Shown here: positions 47,501 to 64,000 of the stretch, piece by piece
How the letters are laid out: each line of letters starts with the position of its first letter
Position numbering within the stretch: position 1 is the stretch's first letter
Assembly (NCBI RefSeq): GCF_964204865.1
Contig: NC_135256.1
Location: forward strand, 11,346,001 to 11,410,000
Length of the DNA stretch: 64,000 bases
Source of the DNA: Styela clava
Lineage: Eukaryota
Reading direction: 5' to 3'
Program-made: the position numbers and the translations under genes
Notes under the pieces: model-generated
What the model was told of the DNA's origin: nothing
Seen by the model: the letters and a program-made list of their open reading frames with translations, nothing else
Database searches by the model: none

Positions 47501-50214
47501 CAAACTCAAGTAGAATCTGTGATACAAGCTGGTCTCATACCACAAGTTATAATGCATTTAAACAAGGTACCTTCACAATGAAGTTTGTACAATGTAGAGT
47601 ACCGTAATTCTCATCCAACTGTACTCGTTTGAATTTTTGAGTAACAAGTTTCAAACCTATTTTAACTCATATGTGACCTTACCTTTGTTGCTGTTTAACA
47701 AAGGGAGTGAAATTTTCAATGTCCAATAATTTTTCAAAAAAAAACGTAAAAATATTTGGCACAATGAGAAAGATGTATCATTTTTATTTAAAATTTTGGT
47801 TCATCTTACTCTGAATGTATTAGAAATTTTAGAAAAGTGAATTTTCAATGTTTTACAAAATTGAAGTATAAAAACTAAGATATAATCATATTCTGTTTTC
47901 ACACAGAGTGATTTCCAAACACAAAAGGAAGCAGCTTGGGCCATCAGCAACCTAACTATATCTGGAAACAAAGATCAAGTGGCACATGTTGTTCGCCAAG
48001 GTGTCATTCCACCATTTTGTAACCTGCTGACTGCTAAGGATAATCAGGTGGGTGTCGAGTGTTGAACTTATCAAGTGCTGCAAAGTAGGTGACTAAAATA
48101 GCAAATTTAGAAAATTTCTTGTTGTTTTTTTCCCTTTGAAACTTGCACTGAGGTACATGGTCAATCAGGTAGACAAATTTCTCAAGTATTTCCCCATCTG
48201 CATGTCTCATGAATTTCTAAATTATAACATTTTAGGGCCCTATCGAAATATTGTAGGCAGGCAGATCAAAACAAGTTCACAATAAGCCATTCCTCAATTT
48301 CTTCAATTTTTTATATTGGCCATTTAACCCTTTCCGTGCGGTGGGCACGTATACGTACCAACGACAAAAGTCGCTAGATTGCGGCGGGTACGTTGATGTA
48401 CTCCACTGTTTTATTTAGCAATCGGTCGCAAACTGTTGGTCTAGTTTTTCCGGGTTTTAGTTTATTGATAAGAAGTCTTCTTCGAGATCAGCATAAGCGA
48501 AGGTAAATCTCGCTTTCGTTTACGACGGGAATTTTATTTGCGGCGGAACGAGGGAGTGTTTTTGAAATTTATGCAAATTTCAGTGTTTTTTGGGTGGTAA
48601 TAGAAGACATATTATCCCTTCCATCTACCAAAGTATTTTGAGTTAGATCACGAAATTGCTACAACAATATTATGCTATTGTTTGCCAATCACGAAGCAGT
48701 AACAGTAAAGGATTTAGCGAATATTTCTATTTTTTATCACGGTTTGAAGTTTCAACTCCCAAGAAAAAAAATGCCTTTTTTCTATCCGGTTTGTGACTCA
48801 GACTACCCCTTTTGAAAAAACTTTTTTTTTAATCGCCAATTGCAAGCTCTTTAAATAAGCTTTCCAACGAGCCGTCAGTGGGCAGCAGAGGATCATTAGT
48901 TTTTCGTTAGTCGATCGATTAGTTGTGGGGGTACAAATGCATAAAATCGGCGTAGCAAATACGATTATTTAATAAAAAATAAAAATCGCATGGAAAGGGT
49001 TAAGCATTCTTTCTTTTCCATGTGCCTTTCTCTTATTGGTTCTAGTGTTATAGCAATGTAAATTATGTAATAATCTCAAAATATTGTAGGAAGGCAAATC
49101 AAAACCAGGTTACAATAGGCTAATCCTTGGTTATTCCAAAATTCACTATTATTTTGCTCCGGTTATCAGAATGTGACACCATTTCTTAGTCTTAATCTTT
49201 TCCTATTGCTTGTTATATTTGTAATCTCAAAGTTATGTAGGCCAATAACATGATACAGTATTTGTTTATCCAACAGATTATTATTGTATGGTGAAGTAGT
49301 TCGCCAAAGAAAAGCTTGTTTGACTGCAGTCTTCTCCCACTATGCCGTTTCGCATTTCAACTGCCTCAATATATTGATTTTTAAGCAATTTTCATTTATT
49401 ACTGCTAGGTCGTTCAAGTGGTCTTGGATGGAATTATCAACATATTGAAAATGGCAGGTGAAGATGACGCTGTTGCTACTCTGATCGAGGAATGTGGAGG
49501 TGAAGAAGACTAAAAATTATTATTTGTTATCTTTTTCCGTCATGATAACAAGCTTCTATATTTGTTTTATACTTTCTCAGGTTTAGACAAGATTGAGGCA
49601 CTTCAGAATCATGAGAATGGAGATATTTACAAGCTGGCGTACGAGATCATAGATCAGTTTTTTTCTGGAGACGTAAGATCGATTAATGTTATTTATTTTG
49701 AACTTATATCATCAATTTCACAACTTCTGTCTGCTTATTATATATTGGTGTGGCTACTCTTCCAAATTTTTATGCCTGTACTGTATAAATGGTGCTCCCG
49801 AAGTATGCGAACCAAGATGGCGGACATCGGAACGTAACATGCGTAACAGGTTAGGGTTAGGCGATAATTTTTTCCAATTTTCCCTATTTTAGTCCTATTA
49901 TCAGTTCAAAGACTAGCCAAGAGCCTCCCGTAGTATTTATACCTAAAATTATGGCCTAACCCTAACCTAGTACACATATTCCGATGTCCGCCATCTTGGT
50001 TCGCATACTTCGGGAGCCCCGTATAAATTTTGATTTTTGTACTCTTTATCTTGAGAATATCATCCATTTTAATTTTTGTAATTTGTTTAATTTCATTTAC
50101 TTTTGAATGTATTTTCTCGAACAGATTGAAGAAGACATTGCCCCAGATAGCACACAGGGATTCCAGTTTGACCCATCTGTTAAGCTTCCACCTGATGGAG
50201 AATTCAAGTTCTGA
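38575..50214 (+). CDS. KPNA4: Importin subunit alpha, alpha-3 clade (KPNA3/KPNA4-like), 14 exons, ~513 aa
   Basis: Exons 38575-38640, 39077-39205, 40653-40788, 42086-42214, 42674-42760, 43389-43485, 44851-44968, 45921-46052, 46523-46651, 47462-47566, 47907-48047, 49409-49499, 49581-49672, 50125-50214. IBB ([23 protein letters not shown]), [52 protein letters not shown]. Likely co-orthologous to KPNA3 and KPNA4. Confidence 0.93.
40889..41190. mobile_element. hAT-type MITE remnant
   Basis: TTTTCAAACTTTTTT start, CGACCC/GACCC subterminal motifs, ends GCCCTG. Confidence 0.5.
43680..43942. mobile_element. Tc2/pogo-like MITE
   Basis: 21-bp imperfect TIR CCGTATATCCTTGCATATAAG / CCTATATGCGAGGATATATGG, flanked by TA; internal CTTATACGC repeats. 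Confidence 0.8.
45138..45423. mobile_element. hAT (Ac-like TIR) MITE
   Basis: TAGGG(G)ATGGG / CCCATCCCTA termini, perfect 8-bp TSD ATAGCAGG (45130-45137, 45424-45431), GGA(C/T)TCG subterminal repeats. Confidence 0.9.
48328..48999. mobile_element. piggyBac-type non-autonomous element
   Basis: TTAA TSD on both sides (48324-48327, 49000-49003); 13-bp TIR CCCTTTCC(G/A)TGCG. Confidence 0.9.
49791..50020. mobile_element. Palindromic MITE family A, copy 3 (inverted relative to copy 1), in last intron of KPNA
   Basis: Near-identical to the reverse complement of 18982-19217; perfect TSD GTATAAAT (49783-49790, 50021-50028). Confidence 0.93.
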
Positions 50215-53055
50215 GAGAGAGTGTCATGTTGTCCCGCCCGCCCCGTCCTATTCTCTTCCTGCACTACCTACCCCTCTGGAGTGCTCGTTTGATGATGAAG
50301 ATGATGCTTGCTGCCTGTCACATCACCCTAGTACAAAGCAGTCAACCAGCTGTTTTGGACAACTGTCTGTCCCACCTCCCCCTCGTGTGTGATGGTGCGT
50401 GCGAAGTGAACGTGATGATGCGTATGTGATGATCATAAATAAGCGTGCTGTGTGAGTGCGTATGAATGATACAGACCTTTTTCTGTATCGTGTGCCTGCG
50501 TAACATGAGTGATACGAGACTACTGACTCGACTAATTTGATCTTCTTCTTACTGTTGAGTGCTACTTTTCAAATTTTGACTATATCGTCACCGCAGAAAT
50601 ATTCAAAACTAGTGCTGTATATCTGCTGAGTGATTGTCATTCTCTGGAACAAACAACACAGGATTTAATTGGTGCAAAATATTCTCAAGCTTATCGAGTG
50701 AAAGACTGTTGTTGAAATTAGATTTACCGAACATTATTGTATTTTAATGGCGTAAAATGTAAAATATTTTGCTTTTAACCGTTTGTGTTTTTTTTGTTTT
50801 TTTTTTAACTTTACAACAATCAATTGAGAATGCTAATGAGTATGTTATTTCAACCAAGGTACCCTAAAAGGTTGATATAGCAATTTGCTTTCTCTAGGTT
50901 CATTTTTCATCACACTGAGATTGTGGGTTAGTTTGCTATATGGCAGCGAGATAATGGAAAAATATTGAATTTCTTTTCAGTTTTGGTCTGACTTATAATT
51001 TTATGGGGTTCATTGAGTATATGGATAGAAAATGGGATGGTCTGAATTATAACGTCTTGGCAAAAAATGCATGATGTCCTTGAATGACTGTTAGAGAAGT
51101 GATTCATGTGCAAATTTGTATTGTATTTACTCCCATTGATTACAAAGATATCTATGAAAATCAATATAAATTTCTATTATTTCGTCGGACATAGGAGGTC
51201 ATACATGGACTTCAAATTGTCTAGTATTATTTTGTGCCTGTTTGTGCATTATAAAAAGAATTTTTTCAAGTGCATAAATAAAATTCGACAAAGGCGGTCT
51301 CTTTGGCCCGACGTTCTCAAAGCTGTGTACCGAATCTGCATAATTGTTCGTAGTTTTACACCAGTGTGCCACCTAACTAAATCTGTACCAATGATTGATG
51401 TGCTAATGTCACAGCAACCTCTTGTTAGAAATGTTATTTTATTTTTTGCATTTACCCACTTTGTACATTTATTATTTATTAGTGATGCCCAATTTAAACT
51501 GACCATATGATTTCATCAACAAACATAAGATGTTTACAATGTGAGTATGTTGATGCAAAGTCTTGTTGTTTTAGTTCTCCTTGGATTGGCAGTACATGCA
51601 ACTTTTCACCAATTACCAAGTAATGTTGTTTTTATTATTTTATTAGTATATACCCACCTATTGGTTGTATATTATTCCTAGCCCGATCACATCATGTTGC
51701 CTCCAAATGCAACCTGTTCTAAACTTATAGACGAAATAAATGAAAGCTAGTTGCCATGAAAAGTTTGTTGCTGTACTGGACGTGTGTTTTTTAATAGCAT
51801 TTTTGTTCTGAAGTGGGGATGAATATAAAACAATAATTGTAGAAAATGTCATAAAAAAATCTCTCCAAAATTGTTGCTAGACAGAAAGGAAACATTTCCA
51901 AACCATAATGAGCAATTTTTGTATTAGACTAGTGCTTATAAATATAGTTTTAGTGTAATCAGCGCTTTGTGAGGCGCGTTTTATAACCTTATGGGACTAG
52001 AACTCGACTAGGGTTCTGCACTGACGACGACAAAGCACATTAGCAGTGTTAAATAATAGCGCGATACTCTGACCAAGCGTAGGTACAATCACACTCGCTT
52101 TAACATCAAACGAACTTAAGGAGTGTTTTAATCGTTACTACAACCTAATGGTCATGTCTGGTCAATGTCAGTAAATGCTTTGTAGAAAGCAATCAATGCG
52201 AAAGTTGCGCAAATATTGACGAGGGCGTTTCATTTAAAAATGATTCGTATCTCAACAAAGAACAGATTACTCTGCTTCATCAGTTGAAATATTTGCACTG
52301 TATGTAATCTTTAGTCAGTTTGAGCAGAAAGTCTGTCGGGTAGTCGCCTAAAGACACGTTATACTTCATTTAATCATGAAATGAGGGTAAAGAAGTGTAA
52401 GTGTATTAAACTTCATGAAATTTCATGGCAATCAAAAAGAGAAAGTCTGCGATAAAATTCATAATTTTCAAGACAAAGCTTTCTGCTCTTAGCGCATGTG
52501 AGTTGTGGTAATATTCAGAACTAGAATTTGGCACTTTTTATAAGGCAACTGAAAGTGGTACAATATTCATATGCGTCTCGTATATTTGGAGTTAAACTGT
52601 ATCGAGGACACTGGTTTTGGATTACTCTCTATCATAGCGACAGTACCGGTAATTCGTAATTAGTCAAGATCAATATATATGCTGTGTCTGCCCTGACTGG
52701 ACAAATGTCCGCATGGTTTTTTGTTCTTAATCGTATTTTAAACTTTTTCTCGGCTGAGTCGACGATACAGGCCATTGAATATTGACGCACAGCCTCTGGC
52801 GAAATAGTAAAGAGAAAAGCCTCGGCTTTGTTTGCGCGTATCATATAAAGTAGCGCGACAAACAAAGAACATGAGCGAAACGTCTGCAAATTAACCATTT
52901 TGCATGAGATAGCTTGGTCGACAAATATTTGTATTCAACACGTTGTTGTTCTCCAGGTATTGAGTAATAAGATTAGTTGCCAATATTTCGTAATAACACC
53001 TTAAATGGAGTGTTAGTGAGATGGACGAGGTCTGCCCATTGCCTGCTTTAGATTG

Positions 53056-53390
53056 ATGGCATATCACGTAAAGTACTGGCTGGACGTGCAGACACGTAAG
53101 ACCGTTTTCTGCGCGAAGCAAGCTGTAATTTATTCGTGCTTCCATCGAAGAATGAATAAATACTTGGCCTCTTCTATACTTGGTTTTCTGTTTGTTTGCC
53201 TGGTATACGCTACATTCAAATGTAACATAAGTAAGCTAATTCGCTATTGAATGAAAGAACATTGTGTCAGAAAGTCTGTCATTATGTACTAATTTATTCC
53301 CCAGGTGCGTCGTCGCAATATTCTACCAAGTTGGACAACGGAGAGAATTTACCGCAGTTTATCGTAGACTTTTTTCAGGCATTTAAAGAG
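53056..53390 (+). CDS. Alternative N-terminal exons (53056-53230, 53305-53390) of the CPTP/GLTPD gene encoding a signal-anchor
   Basis: Splicing 53230/53305 and 53390/54765 (GT-AG) stays in frame with the GLTP domain; encodes ..HRRMNKYLASSILGFLFVCLVYATF.. Confidence 0.65.
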
Positions 53391-54788
53391 GTAAGTTACT
53401 ACGCTATAAACGCGCTGGCGATAAAATCATCCACGCGTTTCGGGGACTGGGTGGTTTATGGGCAGGGCATGAACACTGCGCCGCTTACAGCTCAAAGTCA
53501 AAGCCGTCTGGGGATTCGAGAGGCGAGGGTGTGATAGTTGGTGATAGCCGACAAAATATTAAACAATTTTTGTATCAGTGCATGATGTACAATATCATTA
53601 GAATATGAACTGTAAGAGGATAATCTTTTCACACTGTGTTCAATATGTCTGTATGTTACAGTGCAGTCATTGCTATTTCTAGCCTCTTAGATCCTGTCTT
53701 GTATAATTCCCACAGGTATCTCAGCGTTTTCTGGTATGACTTTGGAAGCTCTTATATGTACTTGTAGGTCCATATAACGATTTGCTAGGTCTTTTAGCAA
53801 CTCAAGTTGGACAAGCCGTTAGTCATTTCACGATTTCCTTTCCATGTCAAATCTGATCCAGGTAATTGTTAATTAATTGGATCTTTTCCACAATCAGAAA
53901 TTTTCATTAGGTGTTCTGCAAACAATTTATGATATAAGAACTGTTAGGCAACTTGAAAATTGATGGTTTAATATACAATTTAGATATTACAGTATTGGGT
54001 GACCAAATTGAAGCGAGGTTTTACTATTAACTTTGTCATTTTTGTTTCATTTTGAGAATGATTTTTATTAGTAGCTAATTTTACGGTGTGTCGGTTTGGT
54101 AAATTCAGTTTGGAGTTCATTCAGTTATTGCTATAAAATATTAATGTTTTTGAAATCTTTCTGTCTATTTTACTCCAATTAACTGCAATTGAAAGATTTA
54201 TTTCATACTGGCAATGATGTGTAAAGTATTTGTTTGATCAGGTTTTGCTTGGCTAAAATTTTGCATAATATTTTGTGTATGGTAAATGTCAAACCATTCA
54301 ACCACTTGCCCAGCTGGCCTTAAACTTGCATTAAATTAATTAACGTATAATTGTAAATTCAATCTTTCTATATCTATATCTAGATGTAAGGTAATCTTAA
54401 TATATCTGGATATAGTATTCCCATCAACTTATTATATCGAAAGTTGTAGTTATTTTAGTTTTTCAAATATATAATAAATAAGCTAACTGACTTACTGATC
54501 CCGCCAGGTAATTTTTTACGTGTTGTTCTTGCTGTTATAATTCTGTTCAGTTGTGAATAAGTTTCAACTATTTGTAACTGTCATACACTTAGGTCTTTAT
54601 CAGTACTGACAATATTGACTAATTTTCAACACTTAGTGTACCTGAAATGTATAAAGATTCGTAACAGACTTTTTTATGGTACTATGTTTTATTTATAATG
54701 AATCATTTATGTGTCATCCATTCTTGTTCCTGTATTAATATAAACACTGTCCTTAACTTTCAAGGAAACCAATCCTGAACCAAAAAAG

Positions 54789-56689
54789 ATGGCGGACAAG
54801 TGCAGTGCACATTTTTCACTAGTTAATCTTTCTGAAAAGTTTGTTCGTTGTGCTACAACAGAAAATAAGGTAGAAGTCGACATGGATGCTTGTCTCGAAG
54901 CTTGGCATGAGTTGATTCGGTATGTATTCGACTTATCGGTATTAGCTTATATATTGATGTTATGGAATAGGTTTAACTGCAATATCAATAATGTTACAGC
55001 TTTTTAAATGCAATGGGAAAAGCATTTTCATTCGTATCATCTGATGTTGTATCGAAAGTTGAAATACTTGAAGGTTTTCGAAAGTCTGAAGCAAAAGAAA
55101 ATTATGAAACTGTAGAAAAGATGATGGCGTATGAGAAGAAAGAAAACCTTATTAATTACGAGGAAGCACCTTCAAGTAAGGTACGAAAAATTCAAATTTT
55201 CAGTTTTTACACTATTACACCGTCAGTTTATTCCATCTCATCCAAATAAAATCACATAGACCAGGGTCTCGAATCCATCTTAGTTATTTTGGAAATAATG
55301 TTTTAACAATGTATCGCGAATGTATATTACAATGCTTCGTTTGGTAACTTTGATATATCTTCAGGTGAAAGCATCTGGAAGCCGCACATTGCTCAGATTA
55401 CACAGAGCATTGAAATTTTTACTCCTATTTTTGGAAAAACTGGCAAAAAATGAAGAAGATGGAAAAGTGTCATTGATGGGATACAAAGCATATCATGCTT
55501 CACCAATGGCAAAGTATGTCGGCCAGTACTTTCGAATTAAAACTTTTTGAAATTGAAATTTGCTGAAGATAATTTTACAAATGCATAGTGTTAGAACCCT
55601 GATGACATTTTTGTCTATTATAGAATATAGAGACAGGATGATAAACAAATGCTGAAAGTAGTACCAAGCAAGTAATAGGTTGAGATACCTAATAGGTTGA
55701 AATTTGATATACTAGCCTGCAACTACAAAACTCTGTTCAGACTTGCATACCTTATTGCTTTGATCTTTTTCCTACATTGTGCAAGGCTCCTATGTATCCT
55801 GAGTTTTCAATGTTCGAAAAGCATTGATGAAAATCATGCATCTTGTTTCAGTAATTTAAATATTTTGATTTTTGACAGGTACCATCCATGGATTGTGAGA
55901 AAAGCTGTGGGTATTGCAGTTTATATGTTGCCAGATCGTGAAAAATTTATTAAGCAATTATGTCAGGATTTAACGGAAGAAGAACTTGTGAAAACTACAC
56001 TAACTACATCAGAGAGTATGGATGCAGTATATGAATATACACAAGCACTATATAGGTAAAACTCATTGTTTATGTTTAAACAAAATTTGATCTATGCAGT
56101 GCATTTTGAATAATCCAGGCTTTGGGCCACTCAGTTGTTCTGATCAAATATGGTGCTCAGTTATCTTGAACTTTTGTAACCAAATTTGGGCCGTGTCTAT
56201 CGGTTGAGCATGTAATTGTAAACAGGGCTGGGTTGTCGTAGCCTGGATCCATAGAATAGTGACATTCGCGGAAACAGAAATTTTTTAATTTTCCAGCTCC
56301 TGACCATCTAATTCTTCAGAATAAGTTTGAAATTCAGAGTTTAATTTTAAAAATTGAAATCTTTAATGCTTTTGAATCCGAATGCCATGAAACTGCTTTT
56401 GGTCTGATATTCATGGAGGTGGTCATATAAAAAAACATGAATGGCTATGGAGCTGGATACTGGCTCAGAGGTAAATAAATGAAGCTCTGGTACCTGCAGT
56501 CACAGTTTGAATATACAAGCTTCCCACCCTGATTGTGAACCTATTCATTGAAACATTCTAATAACTGTTTAATGCAACCTCATAGCAATTAGATGGCTGC
56601 TGTATCATATCTGCTATTACTTATCAGTGCTAATCTAATCGGTGTTAATTTTTCTTTTCAGTAAATACGAATTATCAGAGATACCCTGA
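54789..56689 (+). CDS. CPTP: Ceramide-1-phosphate transfer protein (GLTP-fold, CPTP/GLTPD1-2 family), core 221 aa
   Basis: Exons 54765/54789-54919, 55000-55180, 55365-55513, 55879-56055, 56662-56689. Motifs FSFVSSDVVSKVEIL, SGSRTLLRLHRALKFL, YHPWIVRKAV. Confidence 0.9.
56223..56531. mobile_element. hAT-type MITE
   Basis: CAGGG...CCCTG termini, 8-bp near-TSD ATTGTAAA (56215-56222) / ATTGTGAA (56532-56539). Confidence 0.65.
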
Positions 56690-59636
56690 TGAAAAAGAAC
56701 GAAACTCCTCAACTTCAATTTCTTATATACCAATTACAGAAGTAGAGTTCAAGCTCAGAAAGAAAATTAAATATTATCCTGCTTCAATTTACTATTGGAA
56801 TCCATACATAAATTTCACTGCTGATTTCTTAACCATCCCACACACAGTATCATAATAGTGTCTTCTGGAAAAAATCTTAATCTGCTTTATACAGCTGCTT
56901 ACCAAGCCTCACAGCCTCTTCAAACCTACAAAATTAGAATGTAAGATTGCTTATAAACATATTCTGATAACCAGATATAGGTAATACGAAAATAGCTAAT
57001 GCTAGAACTGATGAATTGTTTTGGCGGTTCATTGATGTTTTTATTATACAATAGGTATTTAGATGTGATCAACCTATTGATGGTACAATCTTAAGTACTT
57101 AGGCAAACTGCACAACCCATTGCAGAATATCAGATTGCACTTAAACTATTTCAGATAGATTTTCCTAAATATTCTGGTGATATGAATAGTCTTGGCACGC
57201 TATATTTAACTCTGCAAGGTTTAAACACGCGTGAGCATCGTTTGCATGAAGTAACATGTTCGTGAAATCGATGTGGACAGATCTGATAAAACGAAGCTCA
57301 AAGAAGATTATTATTCATTTTGTGCATTGCTCTGGTCATGAATGTGTATTGTAACTTTATGTTGAAACTCACTTTGTGAAAGTACACCCACACATATGGA
57401 AATGTTCTATTTTAATGGAAATGTGTCAATGTTGTGCAATATTATGCATTTTGTGTTAAACATTTCTTTATTGTGTTACTGCTTTGTAACAAGTATTTGT
57501 TTACTATGTTCATATAATCCATTGATATTTATTCTTATCCATTTTTAAGTCTTGGTAACAGTATTTTGGAAAGCGACTTGTGTTTCCTCTGCTTGGGGGG
57601 CAGGCCTTAGTCAGAGCACATGTGTGAATTACGTAAATTGGCCGGATATCGAAAATTTAACGAATTTATTATTTTGCCAAAATACATATGTGGCTGAAAT
57701 ATGTAGGCTTGTCGATTTTCTCATTGTTGCAGGCAGGTTAAGTTTACTTTATTTCGGATTGCGGGATGTAAAACGGAATTAATTATAATTCTCGATAAAA
57801 GACCGGAAATCCATGGTTATTTCCTAATGATAAAACCCGTCTCCTTGTTTATTTCACGGATATTCTGGCGCATTCTATTATAACAGTCCTGACATTTTTA
57901 GTCGGCAGGAGTATTTTATCTGTCATTGCTAAAATTTATTCTGGCGTCCAAAGTTCTATTTGGACAGTGGAGAATTTTTAAAACAACATCGTCTTTCTGA
58001 AATATTTCGATAACGAGTCCAAAGTTTCTCCAGGAGGGGTCTCCTCCGACAGTTTTATAGTCTGTGCGCGTCATAAAATGACATTGTGGTCATTTAATTT
58101 CGCATTAGAAAAAGTTTTTCCAACTGTGCGAATGCGGAAGGACTGTCGGCTTCAAGCCCGTACAGGCATGGGCCACGTGATAGACAACAAATCGATGTCT
58201 TGAACCGACGAAATAAATTGACCATGTGCGAAAATAATTAAAGTACAATAAAATATATGAAGCTGGACAATCGTGATATGATCTAGTTCTAGTCTAAGGA
58301 TATTTACACCGCTAAAGCTCGCGGTAAACAAAAATTTGTGATTTCAAATTGCACAAATCCCAAATAATTCATTAATATTACTGCTTAGTGAGAAAATAAA
58401 TGTGTGTTAATGTTTATAAAATTATAACCGAAGTGTATCTTCATTTATTTTTCATCTGCTCAAGTAAACGTAAAATTAAACTCACTCATGTGCGCGTTAT
58501 AAATTTTATACTATATGCGTTCTAAACTTTATTTTAGAAGCCCTATTGAATCAGTCTTTAATATGTTTTTGCTACATGTATGTTTCATATCATGCTGATT
58601 ATAGAGTCGAATAAAATCTCTCCTCGGCTGCCAAATGCCAACGATATTTCTTTGATTTTTGGACACAGATGCATCTCTTCACAACGATAAGAGGCTTGGG
58701 GTATGACGTATAACGCGTCAGCTGTTAATATTTGTTTTTGCCATGGCGCAATTCGCAGTTGGGCAGATGTTAAATCTTCTTATGTTAGTGCGAAACCATT
58801 GTTTTGAAAAGGTAGATTTTATTATTGTATAAAAAGGGAGAAAAGCTGACCCAGACCACAGTACAACTTCGATTGCGTGTGCCGTGTACTACGCGATGTA
58901 CATATTATTGTATCTAACGTTCAGTCAGACGCTGCAAAAAGTTGAGATTGCAATATCAGAATACAATTAGACCACAAAATTAACAGCAATCAGACTATAG
59001 TCTACAAGTGTCTTGGTATTATTAATAAAAGGTAGTCGTAAATCTACTGCTTCTGGCAGTCTGGTGCCGGTATACGGTACCGGTACCGTACTTTATCCTA
59101 CTGGTTCTTCAGCAATTTCTGTATTCAGCATAATAAATTTTGGGCAGGTTAGAGATGAATAGTGGAATTTGACTGATTCAACATTGCGACTTTAAGAGAT
59201 TTTTAGTGCAACTTTGACCGAACCTTGAGAGATAAAATGATTCATCAGTCATACCACAAACCGAGAAGTTACCATACTGCCATAAAGCTTAGTTGTCCAT
59301 ATCAGGAGTTTCCCTAAACATATTATTTCAGGTTGAAATCTTATTGAAGATGATCAGATCCACGCATTGGCAGTGTATTGGTGTACGGATTTGACAATAT
59401 TAAACCCAATTGGAGTTATGCCAGCTAACGTATGAGAATCTAGTTTGAACGATTTGATGTCAACTGCTTGGCAAAATTATTTCATGAGTAACAACTTGAC
59501 ATTTATTAACTAAAAGCAACATACGATATATCCAAAGGTACTACAAACTCCTCACTACTCGAAAATTTGAATTTTACAGTTAGCTTATTCTAGACCTGTT
59601 TTTTACCATTTCCTACTAATAAATTAATCTAACACA

Positions 59637-61331
59637 ATGTCTAATGTGGATCCATTCGCAAAGATTGACATGTCATTAGGTGAGTAATCAAGTGATTTCA
59701 GACAGCTGTTGCAGAAAGGCATAGAAAAATTAAATTATATATTTTTTCTGAATATTTTGATTGGAACAGATGACATAATCAAGCTCAATAAAAAAGAGAA
59801 GAAAAAGAACGCTGCTGCTGCCCAGAAGGCAAAAAATCCAGCTCCGAAGAAATTGACTGCAGTCCAACGCAGACGAGCTGAATCTTTGAAATTAAAAGCC
59901 AGAAATACAAGAATAAACAAATTGAGGCAACAGAAAGGTACTATCATTGTATATAAAAATGTTGTACATCGAATCCAGTTACAGTGTTTATTCTTCCTTA
60001 TTAAATTGCATCAGTTGGACTTTCACAAAAACTCTGATACCTTTGAAGAAATACCATTGTTAAAATTTGCATTATGAGGACTTTTTCAATTCAGGTCAAA
60101 AGGTACAGACAACCAAAAATGCTTCGTCATTTGGAACAGCGACACAGAGACTGAGAAGGTATGGTTACTTTTTCCTTGCATCATGGCAGTGATAATCGGG
60201 TATGCTATAATTAAAATGCCTTTTTATACAGAAATGCTGCAAAAAAGAATATTCGAAGCAAAAATAATGTTGGAATGACAAGAGGAGGGAGAGTAAACCC
60301 TGCGAAGCAACAGCAGTTTAGACAACAGAGAAAGGTAATATCTAATGCTATGTGTAGTGAAATAGGTTTACAGTTTTGATCACTCCACACTCTTTATGGT
60401 TGACAACTGCCCCATTGATATTTTACTTTGATTACATTTTTAAACAATTCGTACAATACTCAATATTTTTCAGAATCAAATAGCAAACAGAGGTGTGAAT
60501 AATAAACAGGGGCCACAGCAACAAAGAGGACCAGTCAGATTTACTAAAATTGCAGGTAAGTTCATCTTAACGAAGTTTTTCAAGCACTTATCAAAACTCG
60601 AATAAATTAATGATTCTCTTTTTAGGCAGGCCATCTATTAAGGATAGACTCGGTGCCAGGATTAATATCAGAAAAAACAATCAAAGACAAAAACGTCAGC
60701 AAATGACGAATAGAAACAGACAAGGACTGGTCCCTGTTCAGGTAATTGTTCTCACTTTCATTTCCGGTATATTAGATTGAAGTAAAAAGTACCTTAATAA
60801 TTACCAAAATTAATAATATAAGTTTTAAGTCTCTCAGTTATGATTATTCGGATGATTATTCGGACTCAACCAAAACATAATCTCTTGTCAATCTTCATTT
60901 ACATAATTCATGCAATGGATAGATAATTGGGTATAAAATTTTCAGGCATCTAAGAGGGGTGGAAAACGACGCGGTGGACCAACAAATTTCTCTCGACGAC
61001 AAAATTTTAATGAATCAGGAAGAAATCAAATGACACAATCAATAAATAGGCAATACAATCAGCAACCAAGGCGGACGGCAGGGTTAGTACAACATTATGT
61101 GATAGTTATACTAACATTGAGCCACTCACTAGAATTTTCCTAATTGTTATCCAATGCCAATTTAGACAACAGACGAGGGGTCGTGGTGCCAGGAGGCAAA
61201 ATCAAAGAAATAACAACAATAAGTCTTCAACAAACAACAGATCTTTGCCAAATTTCAATAATAAAAGAGGAAGAGGTGGTGGACGTGGACGAGGCAGAGC
61301 CGCAAATCAGCGAAAAGTTACATTATATTGA
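59637..61331 (+). CDS. FYTTD1: UAP56-interacting factor (UIF/FYTTD1)-like protein, 8 exons, ~292 aa
   Basis: Exons 59637-59679, 59770-59937, 60095-60158, 60232-60334, 60474-60555, 60626-60741, 60946-61082, 61166-61331 join in frame. N-terminal UAP56-binding motif KIDMSLDDIIKLNKKE, basic R/Q/N/G-rich body, RGG tail, no RRM. Confidence 0.72.
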
Positions 61332-61741
61332 TCCGTTGTAATCTGATTCCGTCAGCTGACCTACCAATGCTAGTAGTTCGTGCACACTGTATAGTACAGT
61401 ATTCGAAATGTAAATGAATGAATGAACGAATAACTTAAAGTAGTATATTTCACAATGCTTGTTTTTACGTTTTTAGTGGTCATGTCCTTTTCATTGCAAT
61501 AAATTAAAAAAAACAGTCTTTACTGTAATTGCTGAATATATTAAAATATCACCAACAAGAGTTGCAACAAATGATGACAGACAGACAGTATATTCAACTT
61601 GTTTTTATAGTCTCGTCCTTCCCAGTTTGCATCATAATAAAAGCGGCTGTTCTCATTTCAGGATTGAAATTTCGCCCACATTGTTGTGGTCATCCATCTT
61701 TTTTTCTCTGGTGGTCCAACATTCAGATAGCTTTTCTCTGT

Positions 61742-63032
61742 TCACCTTATGGTGTTGAACATGCTGCATTCCACAGTTGAAAATTGCTGCGACGTAAGCC
61801 CCATAGGCAATGTTGGATCAAACTGCTTCCGTATACCATTGAATGAAAATACTTTAATTTGTCTCAGATGAGTATCCCTACCGTTTTGATGATTCTGTAG
61901 ATTGTATTGGATAAGGGAGAGTGCGAATTGCACTTGAATAATAATTAGCAGTTTTAGCAATACCATACTCTTAGTTTATTTTATTACTACTAAGATGTTT
62001 TACAAATTGCCTTACTCATTGCATCCAGATTTATCTTGTTCTTTTTTCTTACCTGCAATATTGCCACTTGCAATATAAAGGCCCGGATTGACTTTTGATG
62101 AATCTTGTCTTGTAGCTTTACCACAACCCAGCCACACGGCTCTTGCATGTATATTTGCTGAAAAGAGTAAACATACAAACAATTATATTCATAACCATCA
62201 TATAAAAAAAATTCACAAACTTGTACCTCAATTTCTCTCAGGTCGTGGTAATGATTGCCCACTCTGAATGACACTCTACTTGGTGTGTAGCTTTCATCTG
62301 ATTTATAGTCTGTGTAAATCGCCACACAACCAATATCTGTCTTCTGTCTGAAAAAATGGAGGACCCCGGTGATAAGTAGAAAAGAAAAGCTATTTTCTAA
62401 AAAGTCGATATATTAACCTGAACTGGACATTGACCATATGCGGTTGAGTGCCATCGGACTGCCAATATGATTCAAGATTGTCATCTCTCAACAATGTAAC
62501 TCCATAGCCTTAATTCAAAATGAAAAAGATTGGTATCGCAAATATGCACCAAAACATATGTTGCAAACCCTCGTTATAATAAAAATTTATGTAATGGTTA
62601 GTGAAGAACTGGTTGCCAATAAGTGATCTAATATTGAAAGGGCCATCACATAAGTGCATTTGTCTTTGAAGGGTTACTCAGCTTTCTTGCATAGAGCCTT
62701 GTTAATGGCAAAGTTGTAAAACACAAAAAGATTGTTGCTGAGTGGATTATATATAAATTGGATACAATAAAAGTTCAGAAGTTGATAAAAATCATATGTA
62801 AATGTTAAGAACCAAGAATCTGATTTTCAAATTAGTAAAAATTTTATTCATTTAATGCAAAAATATTGCTTTCTTTTTTACCTTGTTTACAAGAAGAAAC
62901 TGACCAAACAGCCCGCTCTCCTATCTCTCGACTACTCCCATCATTAACTTTTTTTATATCACCCACTATTTCATATCCAACAGGTCCAATATCAAAAGTT
63001 GTATTGGCGTGATTGTCATCATCCGACGACAT
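61742..63032 (-). CDS. ANAPC10: Anaphase-promoting complex subunit 10 (DOC1), 5 exons
   Basis: Exons 63032-62882, 62508-62418, 62347-62227, 62157-62053, 61893-61742. Motifs [49 protein letters not shown] and C-terminal IR tail. Confidence 0.95.
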
Positions 63033-64000
63033 TATCTTCCACTATTTAAAGTTCTTCGCCAAGAATCCTAACGCTTTACGTCATATATACATTGGATGAA
63101 AAGGGGCTAGTATCGATTAACAAAATATTATGCAGGACGCGGTTATACGAGAAATTTCATTACTAAAATGGACCTCTAAATCGCAAGATACGAGATGACT
63201 CCTATTGCAATGCTTTTTGCTCAAATGCTTCTGGAAACACATTTTCAACGACATCCTATACGTAAAATTGGATTGTTCCCTTTCAATAGTTGTTAGAAAA
63301 CAATGTGGTTGCATAATCATGATTAATGAGTATAATTAATTGCAGAAATAGGTTACATGTTTCAGCTGCAAATGAGTAGTTAGTGCGCATAGAATTCACA
63401 TGTCCTTCCCGAGATACGTTGTTGCCCATAATTGGAATGTTTAATCTGTTTTATGCCTTTGATCCTAATATGATAATTGAAAAAAAGTTTCCAGGTCTTC
63501 ACGTTTCATGCAAAAATATATGCAAGAAGAATATTTAAAAAAATGTGTGAGACCGTAGTAGTATATATTTACGGTGAGACTTACTGCTTATTAAACATTT
63601 TGTCAGAATTTAAAAATGGGAACATATTTTTTCTATCATATGGGAAACGATGTGATGAACTTCGCACCAAAGTGACGATTTGTGCCTGGTTTTGTTCTGT
63701 TCTTTGTGAGACATGGGCGGTGGGATCTCGCGTGAATATTTTTACATTCTGAACTTTTTCCTTCTGGCTTAATATTTTGACGTTGATTAAGTTGAGATTT
63801 TCCAATGTATGTAAGTTACCTATATTATTATTATTAGGGACCTAACAATAATGTTTTATGAAATATAACTTATTAGTAATACAGTAATATCGTGAAATAT
63901 TCATTTACTAAGCCGGTAATTGTTATTTTTATTTCCTTTTGTAAATTTATGATTCTAGTAACCTAACTAAAAAATTTAAATTTTATAATCATATAGAATG

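Follow-up and report, generated by a model that had tools for sequence, protein, structure and literature searches.

Can a single gene supply the same lipid-transfer fold to two cellular compartments? This question is raised by a CPTP-type gene of the ascidian Styela clava, which lies in a 64,000-nucleotide stretch of the genome (NC_135256.1, positions 11,346,001 to 11,410,000 of assembly GCF_964204865.1; hereafter the window, to which all coordinates refer). The initial annotation of this DNA had proposed that one gene encodes both a membrane-anchored, GLTPD2-like protein and a cytosolic, CPTP-like protein, the latter through a separate exon, and that an ancestral two-isoform state was later split between vertebrate paralogues. 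We find that the feature is real and that the evolutionary reading is largely right, but that the mechanism given for the short form is wrong. From the sequence comparisons described below, we consider it fairly probable that the single gene makes a lumen-facing anchored and a cytosolic lipid-transfer protein, the latter starting at an internal methionine (Met96), and that this two-compartment design was split in jawed vertebrates.

Assignment of the gene to the CPTP family was borne out by its domain, its ligand motif and its predicted structure. The product carries a PF08718 GLTP domain (Pfam, E 1e-38) and the complete headgroup motif for ceramide-1-phosphate (C1P), DxxxK...RxxxRxxR...H, formed by D154, K158, R206, R210, R213 and H251 of the 316-amino-acid (aa) form. 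The AlphaFold model of this form (mean predicted local distance difference test, pLDDT, 83.7) found its best Foldseek matches in human and mouse CPTP, and compares with human CPTP 4k80 at a template-modelling (TM) score of 0.93, a root-mean-square deviation of 2.0 and 38% identity, while an ESM Atlas search returned GLTP clusters and nothing beyond. On this model, the product has a CPTP fold with a predicted C1P transfer role. One exon used as query gave a 100% match to a CPTP-like isoform X2, in a RefSeq cluster where two annotation versions list isoforms X1 (316 aa), X2 (282 aa) and X3 (235 aa; XP_039250721.2 to XP_039250723.2). A GLTP-family search of the S. clava genome yielded 8 matches at 4 loci, and the translations of the other three loci read as the glycolipid-type motif DxxxNxxK...WxxR (both motif types as defined in an excerpt of PMC8953657). 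Judged by these motifs, the locus is the only CPTP-type gene found in the genome.

The long form is encoded on the plus strand. The coding part of exon A (53056..53230; contigs, conservation) holds Met1, a conserved basic N-region, a second in-frame ATG at 53152 (Met33) and the hydrophobic segment; exon B (53305..53390) forms a linker or stem; and exon D (54765..54919), placed by frames and alignment, holds Met96 at 54789 and Cys100 at 54801-54803 and begins the GLTP fold. The chain continues, by contigs and frames, with exon E (55000..55180; D154, K158), exon F (55365..55513; R206, R210, R213), exon G (55879..56055; H251, Cys277) and the last coding piece with the stop (56662..56689), behind which the 3' untranslated region runs under contigs to at least 57700. 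As first described, exons A and B join in frame to 54765 with GT/AG ends, adding 87 aa to complete the 316-aa protein, and the extension contains basic residues, the hydrophobic segment LASSILGFLFVCLVYATF and the sequon N57-I-S.

Splicing was followed in contigs from 4 of 13 listed runs (3 studies), aligned to 52500-57700. These runs are presumed to be RNA, and in all four of them five introns are cut at GT..AG and the bin 55632-55805 has zero depth; the contigs show the presence of a form, drop rare forms and cannot rank isoforms by depth. All three junctions to be checked were seen, 53230>53305 and 53390>54765 in 4/4 runs and 53861>54765 in 2/4, together with an unreported joint, 54507>54765, in 2/4. 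Spliced RNAs with and without the coding sequence for the hydrophobic segment therefore come from a single gene, as the RefSeq isoforms also indicate. The piece at 54490..54507 (plus strand; contigs, frame analysis) ends in a further alternative donor, CCAG|GTAATT, and has a stop just upstream in the coding frame, so that Met96 would be the first in-frame start on the 54507>54765 RNA. RefSeq X2, missed in the initial annotation, has an alternative first coding piece at 52425..52497 (plus strand; donor GCAT|GTGAGT joined to 53305) and no hydrophobic segment; its junction 52497>53305 is taken from the RefSeq model, the contig test having begun at 52500. The N-terminus of X2 (MAIKKRKS...) is basic and anchor-free, the upstream donor apparently bypassing the anchor-coding region.

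The soluble form had been ascribed to a separate exon at 53716..53861 ('exon C'; plus strand; contigs, RefSeq X3) that supplies the start MSNLIQ from ATG 53844. Part of this claim stands: the donor at 53861 is used, 53844-53861 is in frame and gives 235 aa, the same length as RefSeq X3, and the sequence confirms that co-inclusion of 53716-53861 would stop the long frame. The piece was not confirmed as an acceptor-bounded exon and found no support as an ancestral switch. A joint into the acceptor at 53716 occurred in 0/4 runs (in contigs, which drop rare forms); unspliced read-through from exon B into the intron was found in 3/4 runs (contigs 53362-53683, -53945 and -53862), two of these contigs cross 53716 unspliced, and in the fourth run a contig at 53532-53859 likewise runs across it up to the region of the 53861 donor. 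All of 'exon C', from its putative acceptor through the ATG to the donor, lies inside an old dispersed repeat (53666..53978, no strand assigned): a search with the intron gave 11 other genomic matches, all confined to 53666-53945, and the ten fetched loci align at 65-74% identity and carry the repeat on to about 53978. The CAG|GTAATT donor was not seen at that column in six other aligned copies of the repeat. The first codons differ across RefSeq versions (MSNLIQ, MSNLIK, MSNLTE), the context of ATG 53844 is weak (TCCATGT), and an in-frame ATG lies at most 10 codons from AG|GTR at 14/113 such sites on the plus strand of the window, which makes MSNLIQ alone little above chance. With the acceptor unseen in the four runs and the piece inside a repeat, we set the cassette-exon reading aside. 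By its sequence 'exon C' looks like a local exonisation or a cryptic donor, a lineage-specific alternative donor or 5' end. For RNA from the 53861 donor to be productive, transcripts would have to start within the intron; with a start at 53716, 2 AUGs would precede 53844.

Concerning the origin of the repeat, a guessed piggyBac-type motif was absent from its ends at 10 loci, and terminal inverted repeats were not apparent. A young family of repeats on C16, C13, C10, C9 and C8 of the S. clava genome, whose copies share 98-99.7% identity across at least 1.9 kb, includes a piece related to this old repeat.

Acceptor-like sites at 53052, 53716 and 54765 are candidates for trans-splicing. Several trans-splice acceptors are described for Ciona genes in an excerpt of PMC11155486; no account of trans-splicing with a spliced leader in Styela was found in the literature searched, and no spliced leader appeared among the loose contig ends of the four runs, so we treat trans-splicing at these sites as a lead only. 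Just upstream of the main start, an 11-codon upstream open reading frame (uORF) in strong context occupies 53021-53056, its TGA overlapping the main ATG (TGATG), and three further short uORFs are found within 52871-53005. An acceptor-like CTTTAG, ending at 53051, is separated from Met1 by four bases. These elements could reflect translational control or a trans-splice site.

If 'exon C' is not the switch, where does the short form start? Met96 stands in strong context (AAGATGG) and aligns near the start of vertebrate CPTP (GLTPD1), which shares with the Styela protein the GLTP fold and the complete C1P motif. Counting any Met in the 20 residues that precede helix 1 of an anchored form, we found an equivalent in 5/5 tunicate, 2/2 cyclostome and 7/10 other invertebrate proteins (one at the edge), that is in 14/17 anchored forms outside amphioxus and GLTPD2, including those of tunicates, hagfish, lamprey, snails and Hydractinia; the chance expectation is estimated at about one third at 2% Met. 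The corresponding counts were 6/49 for GLTPD2 and 0/4 for anchored amphioxus rows. Entries of 226 aa in Ciona and 228 aa in Phallusia begin at the Met96 equivalent, and a 248-aa Clavelina isoform has a short first piece of its own attached at this position; annotated long and short forms measure 324/288/248 aa in Clavelina, 321/226 in Ciona and 314-400/214-231 in amphioxus. The first two helices of the long and short amphioxus isoforms differ throughout (in protein comparison only), consistent with separate first coding exons for the two forms, which would account for the absence of an internal Met there. Met96 is thus likely a conserved device for producing the soluble form.

The hydrophobic segment is predicted to be a signal anchor or transmembrane helix at residues 36-54 (53161..53217, plus strand), a call based on hydropathy and charge. 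Its KD19 hydropathy maximum is 1.96, the AlphaFold model places a helix over residues 26-58, and the net charge is +4 before and +1 after the segment. In 36/38 hand-picked anchored proteins the flank on the N-terminal side carries more positive charge than that on the C-terminal side, and since the more positive flank stays cytosolic under the positive-inside rule, the GLTP domain is predicted to be lumenal, behind a type II anchor. The hydrophobic exon is conserved in relatives: alignment scores of residues 1-87 against Clavelina, Ciona intestinalis and C. savignyi (109, 114 and 105) were reached by 0/1000 shuffles, residues 1-32 are likewise conserved in these ascidians, and 2/2 coding single-nucleotide polymorphisms (SNPs) in exon A are synonymous (among 40 of 117 differences listed). 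Anchored forms were also found in amphioxus, hagfish, lamprey, Lymnaea, Physella and Hydractinia (10 candidates looked up).

A pair of cysteines, Cys100 in the linker and Cys277 near the end of the fold, may form a disulfide in the lumen. Both occur in 10/10 tunicate and 11/11 amphioxus anchored rows (three amphioxus rows having the Cys at a helix-1 position), and of 56 scored GLTPD2 rows 36 have both, 14 neither and 6 are discordant (6 skipped). The pair is present in 0/56 scored jawed-vertebrate CPTP rows (21 skipped), the linker Cys in 0/3 amphioxus short forms, and such a covarying pair fits a lumenal domain. The N57 sequon, which had been offered as part of the anchored form, is not conserved, Ciona and Clavelina having FRCS instead; as it also lies only 3 residues behind the hydrophobic segment, we discarded it as evidence on topology. 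A second site, N108, is kept in 14/24 tunicate rows.

The relation of this gene to the vertebrate paralogues was assessed in three IQ-TREE runs with 54, 45 and 30 rows hand-chosen from about 380 proteins (a motif mismatch led to the removal of one row from the second; some of the GLTPD2 labels were assigned by us to 'CPTP-like' entries). A vertebrate clade of CPTP and GLTPD2 was recovered in each (99/98, 99/95 and 100/97) with the tunicate gene outside it, and a clade of tunicates with GLTPD2 was rejected (p-AU 0.022, approximately unbiased test). Anchored hagfish and lamprey proteins cluster with CPTP, and GLTPD2 has a further anchored protein, P0282, as its sister (100/98). The earlier statement that vertebrate CPTP lacks a hydrophobic extension and GLTPD2 has one agrees with our counts of 0/77 jawed-vertebrate CPTP and 49/56 GLTPD2 rows, which are cluster representatives and not isoform surveys. 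Like the Styela long form, GLTPD2 combines a basic flank, a hydrophobic segment and a linker of 35-67 residues, and in most lineages it has a Cys before helix 1 and a Cys277 equivalent; unlike the Styela gene, it rarely has an internal Met and carries a conserved C-terminal sequon (56/62 rows) that is absent from Styela. Jawed-vertebrate CPTP differs from the Styela protein in having neither extension nor Cys pair. A second CPTP-like gene in amphioxus (P0393 / P0274), anchored and with both cysteines, has accessions adjoining those of the first, which points to an independent tandem duplication with the anchored form retained.

An ancestral two-isoform state divided between paralogues is thus favoured by the tree position, the conserved anchor and the single gene; MSNLIQ as the switch is not supported. 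The split itself appears to have come later than the duplication and more stepwise, since anchor and internal Met are both retained in the CPTP-grouped proteins of hagfish and lamprey. In the simplest history that these sequences allow, the ancestral gene would have had both anchor and internal start, its two early vertebrate copies would have retained the anchor, and each copy would have become restricted to one form in jawed vertebrates.

We propose that the long form would enter the endoplasmic reticulum (ER) by residues 36-54, its basic N-flank staying in the cytosol, and act in lipid transfer as a type II membrane protein (or, if cleaved, a secreted one) facing the secretory lumen, where Cys100 and Cys277 may pair. 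The short form would be cytosolic and made from RNAs lacking exon A, which may arise from intronic 5' ends, from the alternative donors 53861 and 54507 or possibly by trans-splicing to 54765, with translation beginning at Met96 or a few codons upstream; leaky scanning is an alternative route. Anchor plus internal start would be the ancestral animal design; once the gene had duplicated early in vertebrates, the anchor would have been lost from jawed-vertebrate CPTP and the internal start from GLTPD2. Amphioxus would reach the same two forms through separate first coding exons, and the MSNLIQ piece of Styela would be a local exonisation of the repeat.

Several observations weigh against this proposal, and some of them speak for other explanations. 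The short annotated forms may be 5'-truncated models. Should 53861 serve as a distal exon-B donor on exon-A transcripts, the long frame would stop 327 nucleotides before it, 9 AUGs would lie between 53305 and 53844, and the RNA would be of the type subject to nonsense-mediated decay. This premature stop and these AUGs, the origin of 'exon C' in a repeat with a donor GT unseen in the six other copies, the exon-B read-through and the recovery of each minor junction in only two runs all favour the explanation that only the anchored protein matters in Styela, 53861 and 54507 being cryptic donors of a slow, repeat-containing intron that yield non-productive RNA. We nevertheless think this unlikely, given the strong context of Met96 and the frequency of its equivalent in anchored forms compared with GLTPD2, the Clavelina short form joined at the same point, the dedicated short first exon that amphioxus appears to have, and the genome search, which gave no second CPTP-type gene to supply cytosolic activity. 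It is rather unlikely, too, that the hydrophobic segment is cleaved off as a signal peptide, with Met33 (53152) as the simplest start, and the long form secreted: Met33 has an A at -3 where Met1 has a T, Ciona and Clavelina retain the second Met, the 288-aa Clavelina X2 starts there, and GLTPD2 has been measured as a serum protein (an excerpt of PMC8789809), but the conservation of residues 1-32 and the two synonymous SNPs point to Met1 as a start that is likely in use. Long basic N-regions, moreover, favour an uncleaved anchor.

Outside ascidians the extensions are alike in layout and mostly not in sequence. Shuffles reached the score in 46-87/1000 cases for amphioxus, GLTPD2 and one tunicate-clade protein (5/1000 for hagfish), so that independent gains stay conceivable, and many protostome entries are annotated as short only. 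Cyclostomes group with CPTP at 95/92, but at only 86/85 when other rows were chosen. The Cys pair is missing from the anchored proteins of hagfish, lamprey, snails and Hydractinia, and the GLTPD2 rows with neither Cys are mostly related squamates, which makes the covariation rest on few events; sequons, present in 70/77 cytosolic CPTP rows, prove little. An ancestor that was cytosolic only, with extensions gained in several lineages and the GLTPD2 anchor a vertebrate novelty, would suit the low similarity between phyla, the different exon layout of amphioxus and the many short invertebrate entries. We regard it as quite improbable, since cnidarian, gastropod, amphioxus, tunicate and cyclostome proteins have one layout and the linker Cys and Cys277 equivalent are common to the anchored forms of tunicates, amphioxus and most GLTPD2; membrane anchors and stems, besides, diverge fast in sequence. 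Finally, the anchor might sit in Golgi or ER membranes with the N-terminus out and so tether a GLTP domain that faces the cytosol, as the characterised GLTP-fold proteins are described as cytosolic, C1P is made at the trans-Golgi (both from the excerpt of PMC8953657) and the 46-residue linker could bridge a contact site; set against the charge bias towards N-in/C-out and the covarying Cys pair, found only in anchored lineages, this is very improbable.

Elsewhere in the window, an importin-alpha-like gene (Arm, Arm_3) lies upstream at 47886-50392, a forty-two-three (FYTT) match that is weak and below its cut-off lies downstream at 59688-61417, and ANAPC10 occupies the minus strand at 61990-63041. 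Among the other GLTP-family loci of the genome, one on C4 (L002:535-2070, minus strand) is an intronless 512-codon frame with a PH-domain-like N-terminal region and a GLTP domain, and a multi-exon FAPP2-like locus lies on C1; the C4 frame is possibly an intact retrocopy.

The Styela proteins of 316, 282 and 235 aa are already in RefSeq as X1-X3, whose annotation is silent on anchor, topology and evolution, and the partitioning of isoforms among paralogues is a known type of event: in Ciona troponin I, the classic case, as in the fish mitf and synapsin duplicates, isoforms of one gene correspond to separate vertebrate paralogues (excerpt of PMC3395134). In the CPTP case, the partitioned trait differs from these in being a predicted compartment, and the switch seemingly is an internal start codon. 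The literature searched, as far as it was consulted, described neither an anchored invertebrate CPTP nor partitioning in the CPTP/GLTPD2 family; nor did the parts searched yield a mechanistic study of GLTPD2, a gene whose human variants are linked to plasma sphingomyelin and atherosclerosis risk (excerpts of PMC6760179 and PMC8989972). More tentatively, and short of calling it probable, we suggest that a lumenal or extracellular arm of the GLTP fold dates back to the cnidarian-bilaterian ancestor, a single gene serving the two sides of the membrane by way of a signal anchor and an internal AUG, and that human GLTPD2, which comes from plasma-sphingomyelin GWAS, is the disulfide-stabilised heir of that arm in the secretory pathway. 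The comparison predicts that GLTPD2 faces the secretory lumen or is shed, that it contains a disulfide from the linker Cys to the Cys near the end of the fold, and that it moves sphingolipids in the lumen. The family would also provide a clear chordate example in which isoform choice sets the compartment in invertebrates, separate genes have taken over this role in jawed vertebrates, and cyclostomes are intermediate.

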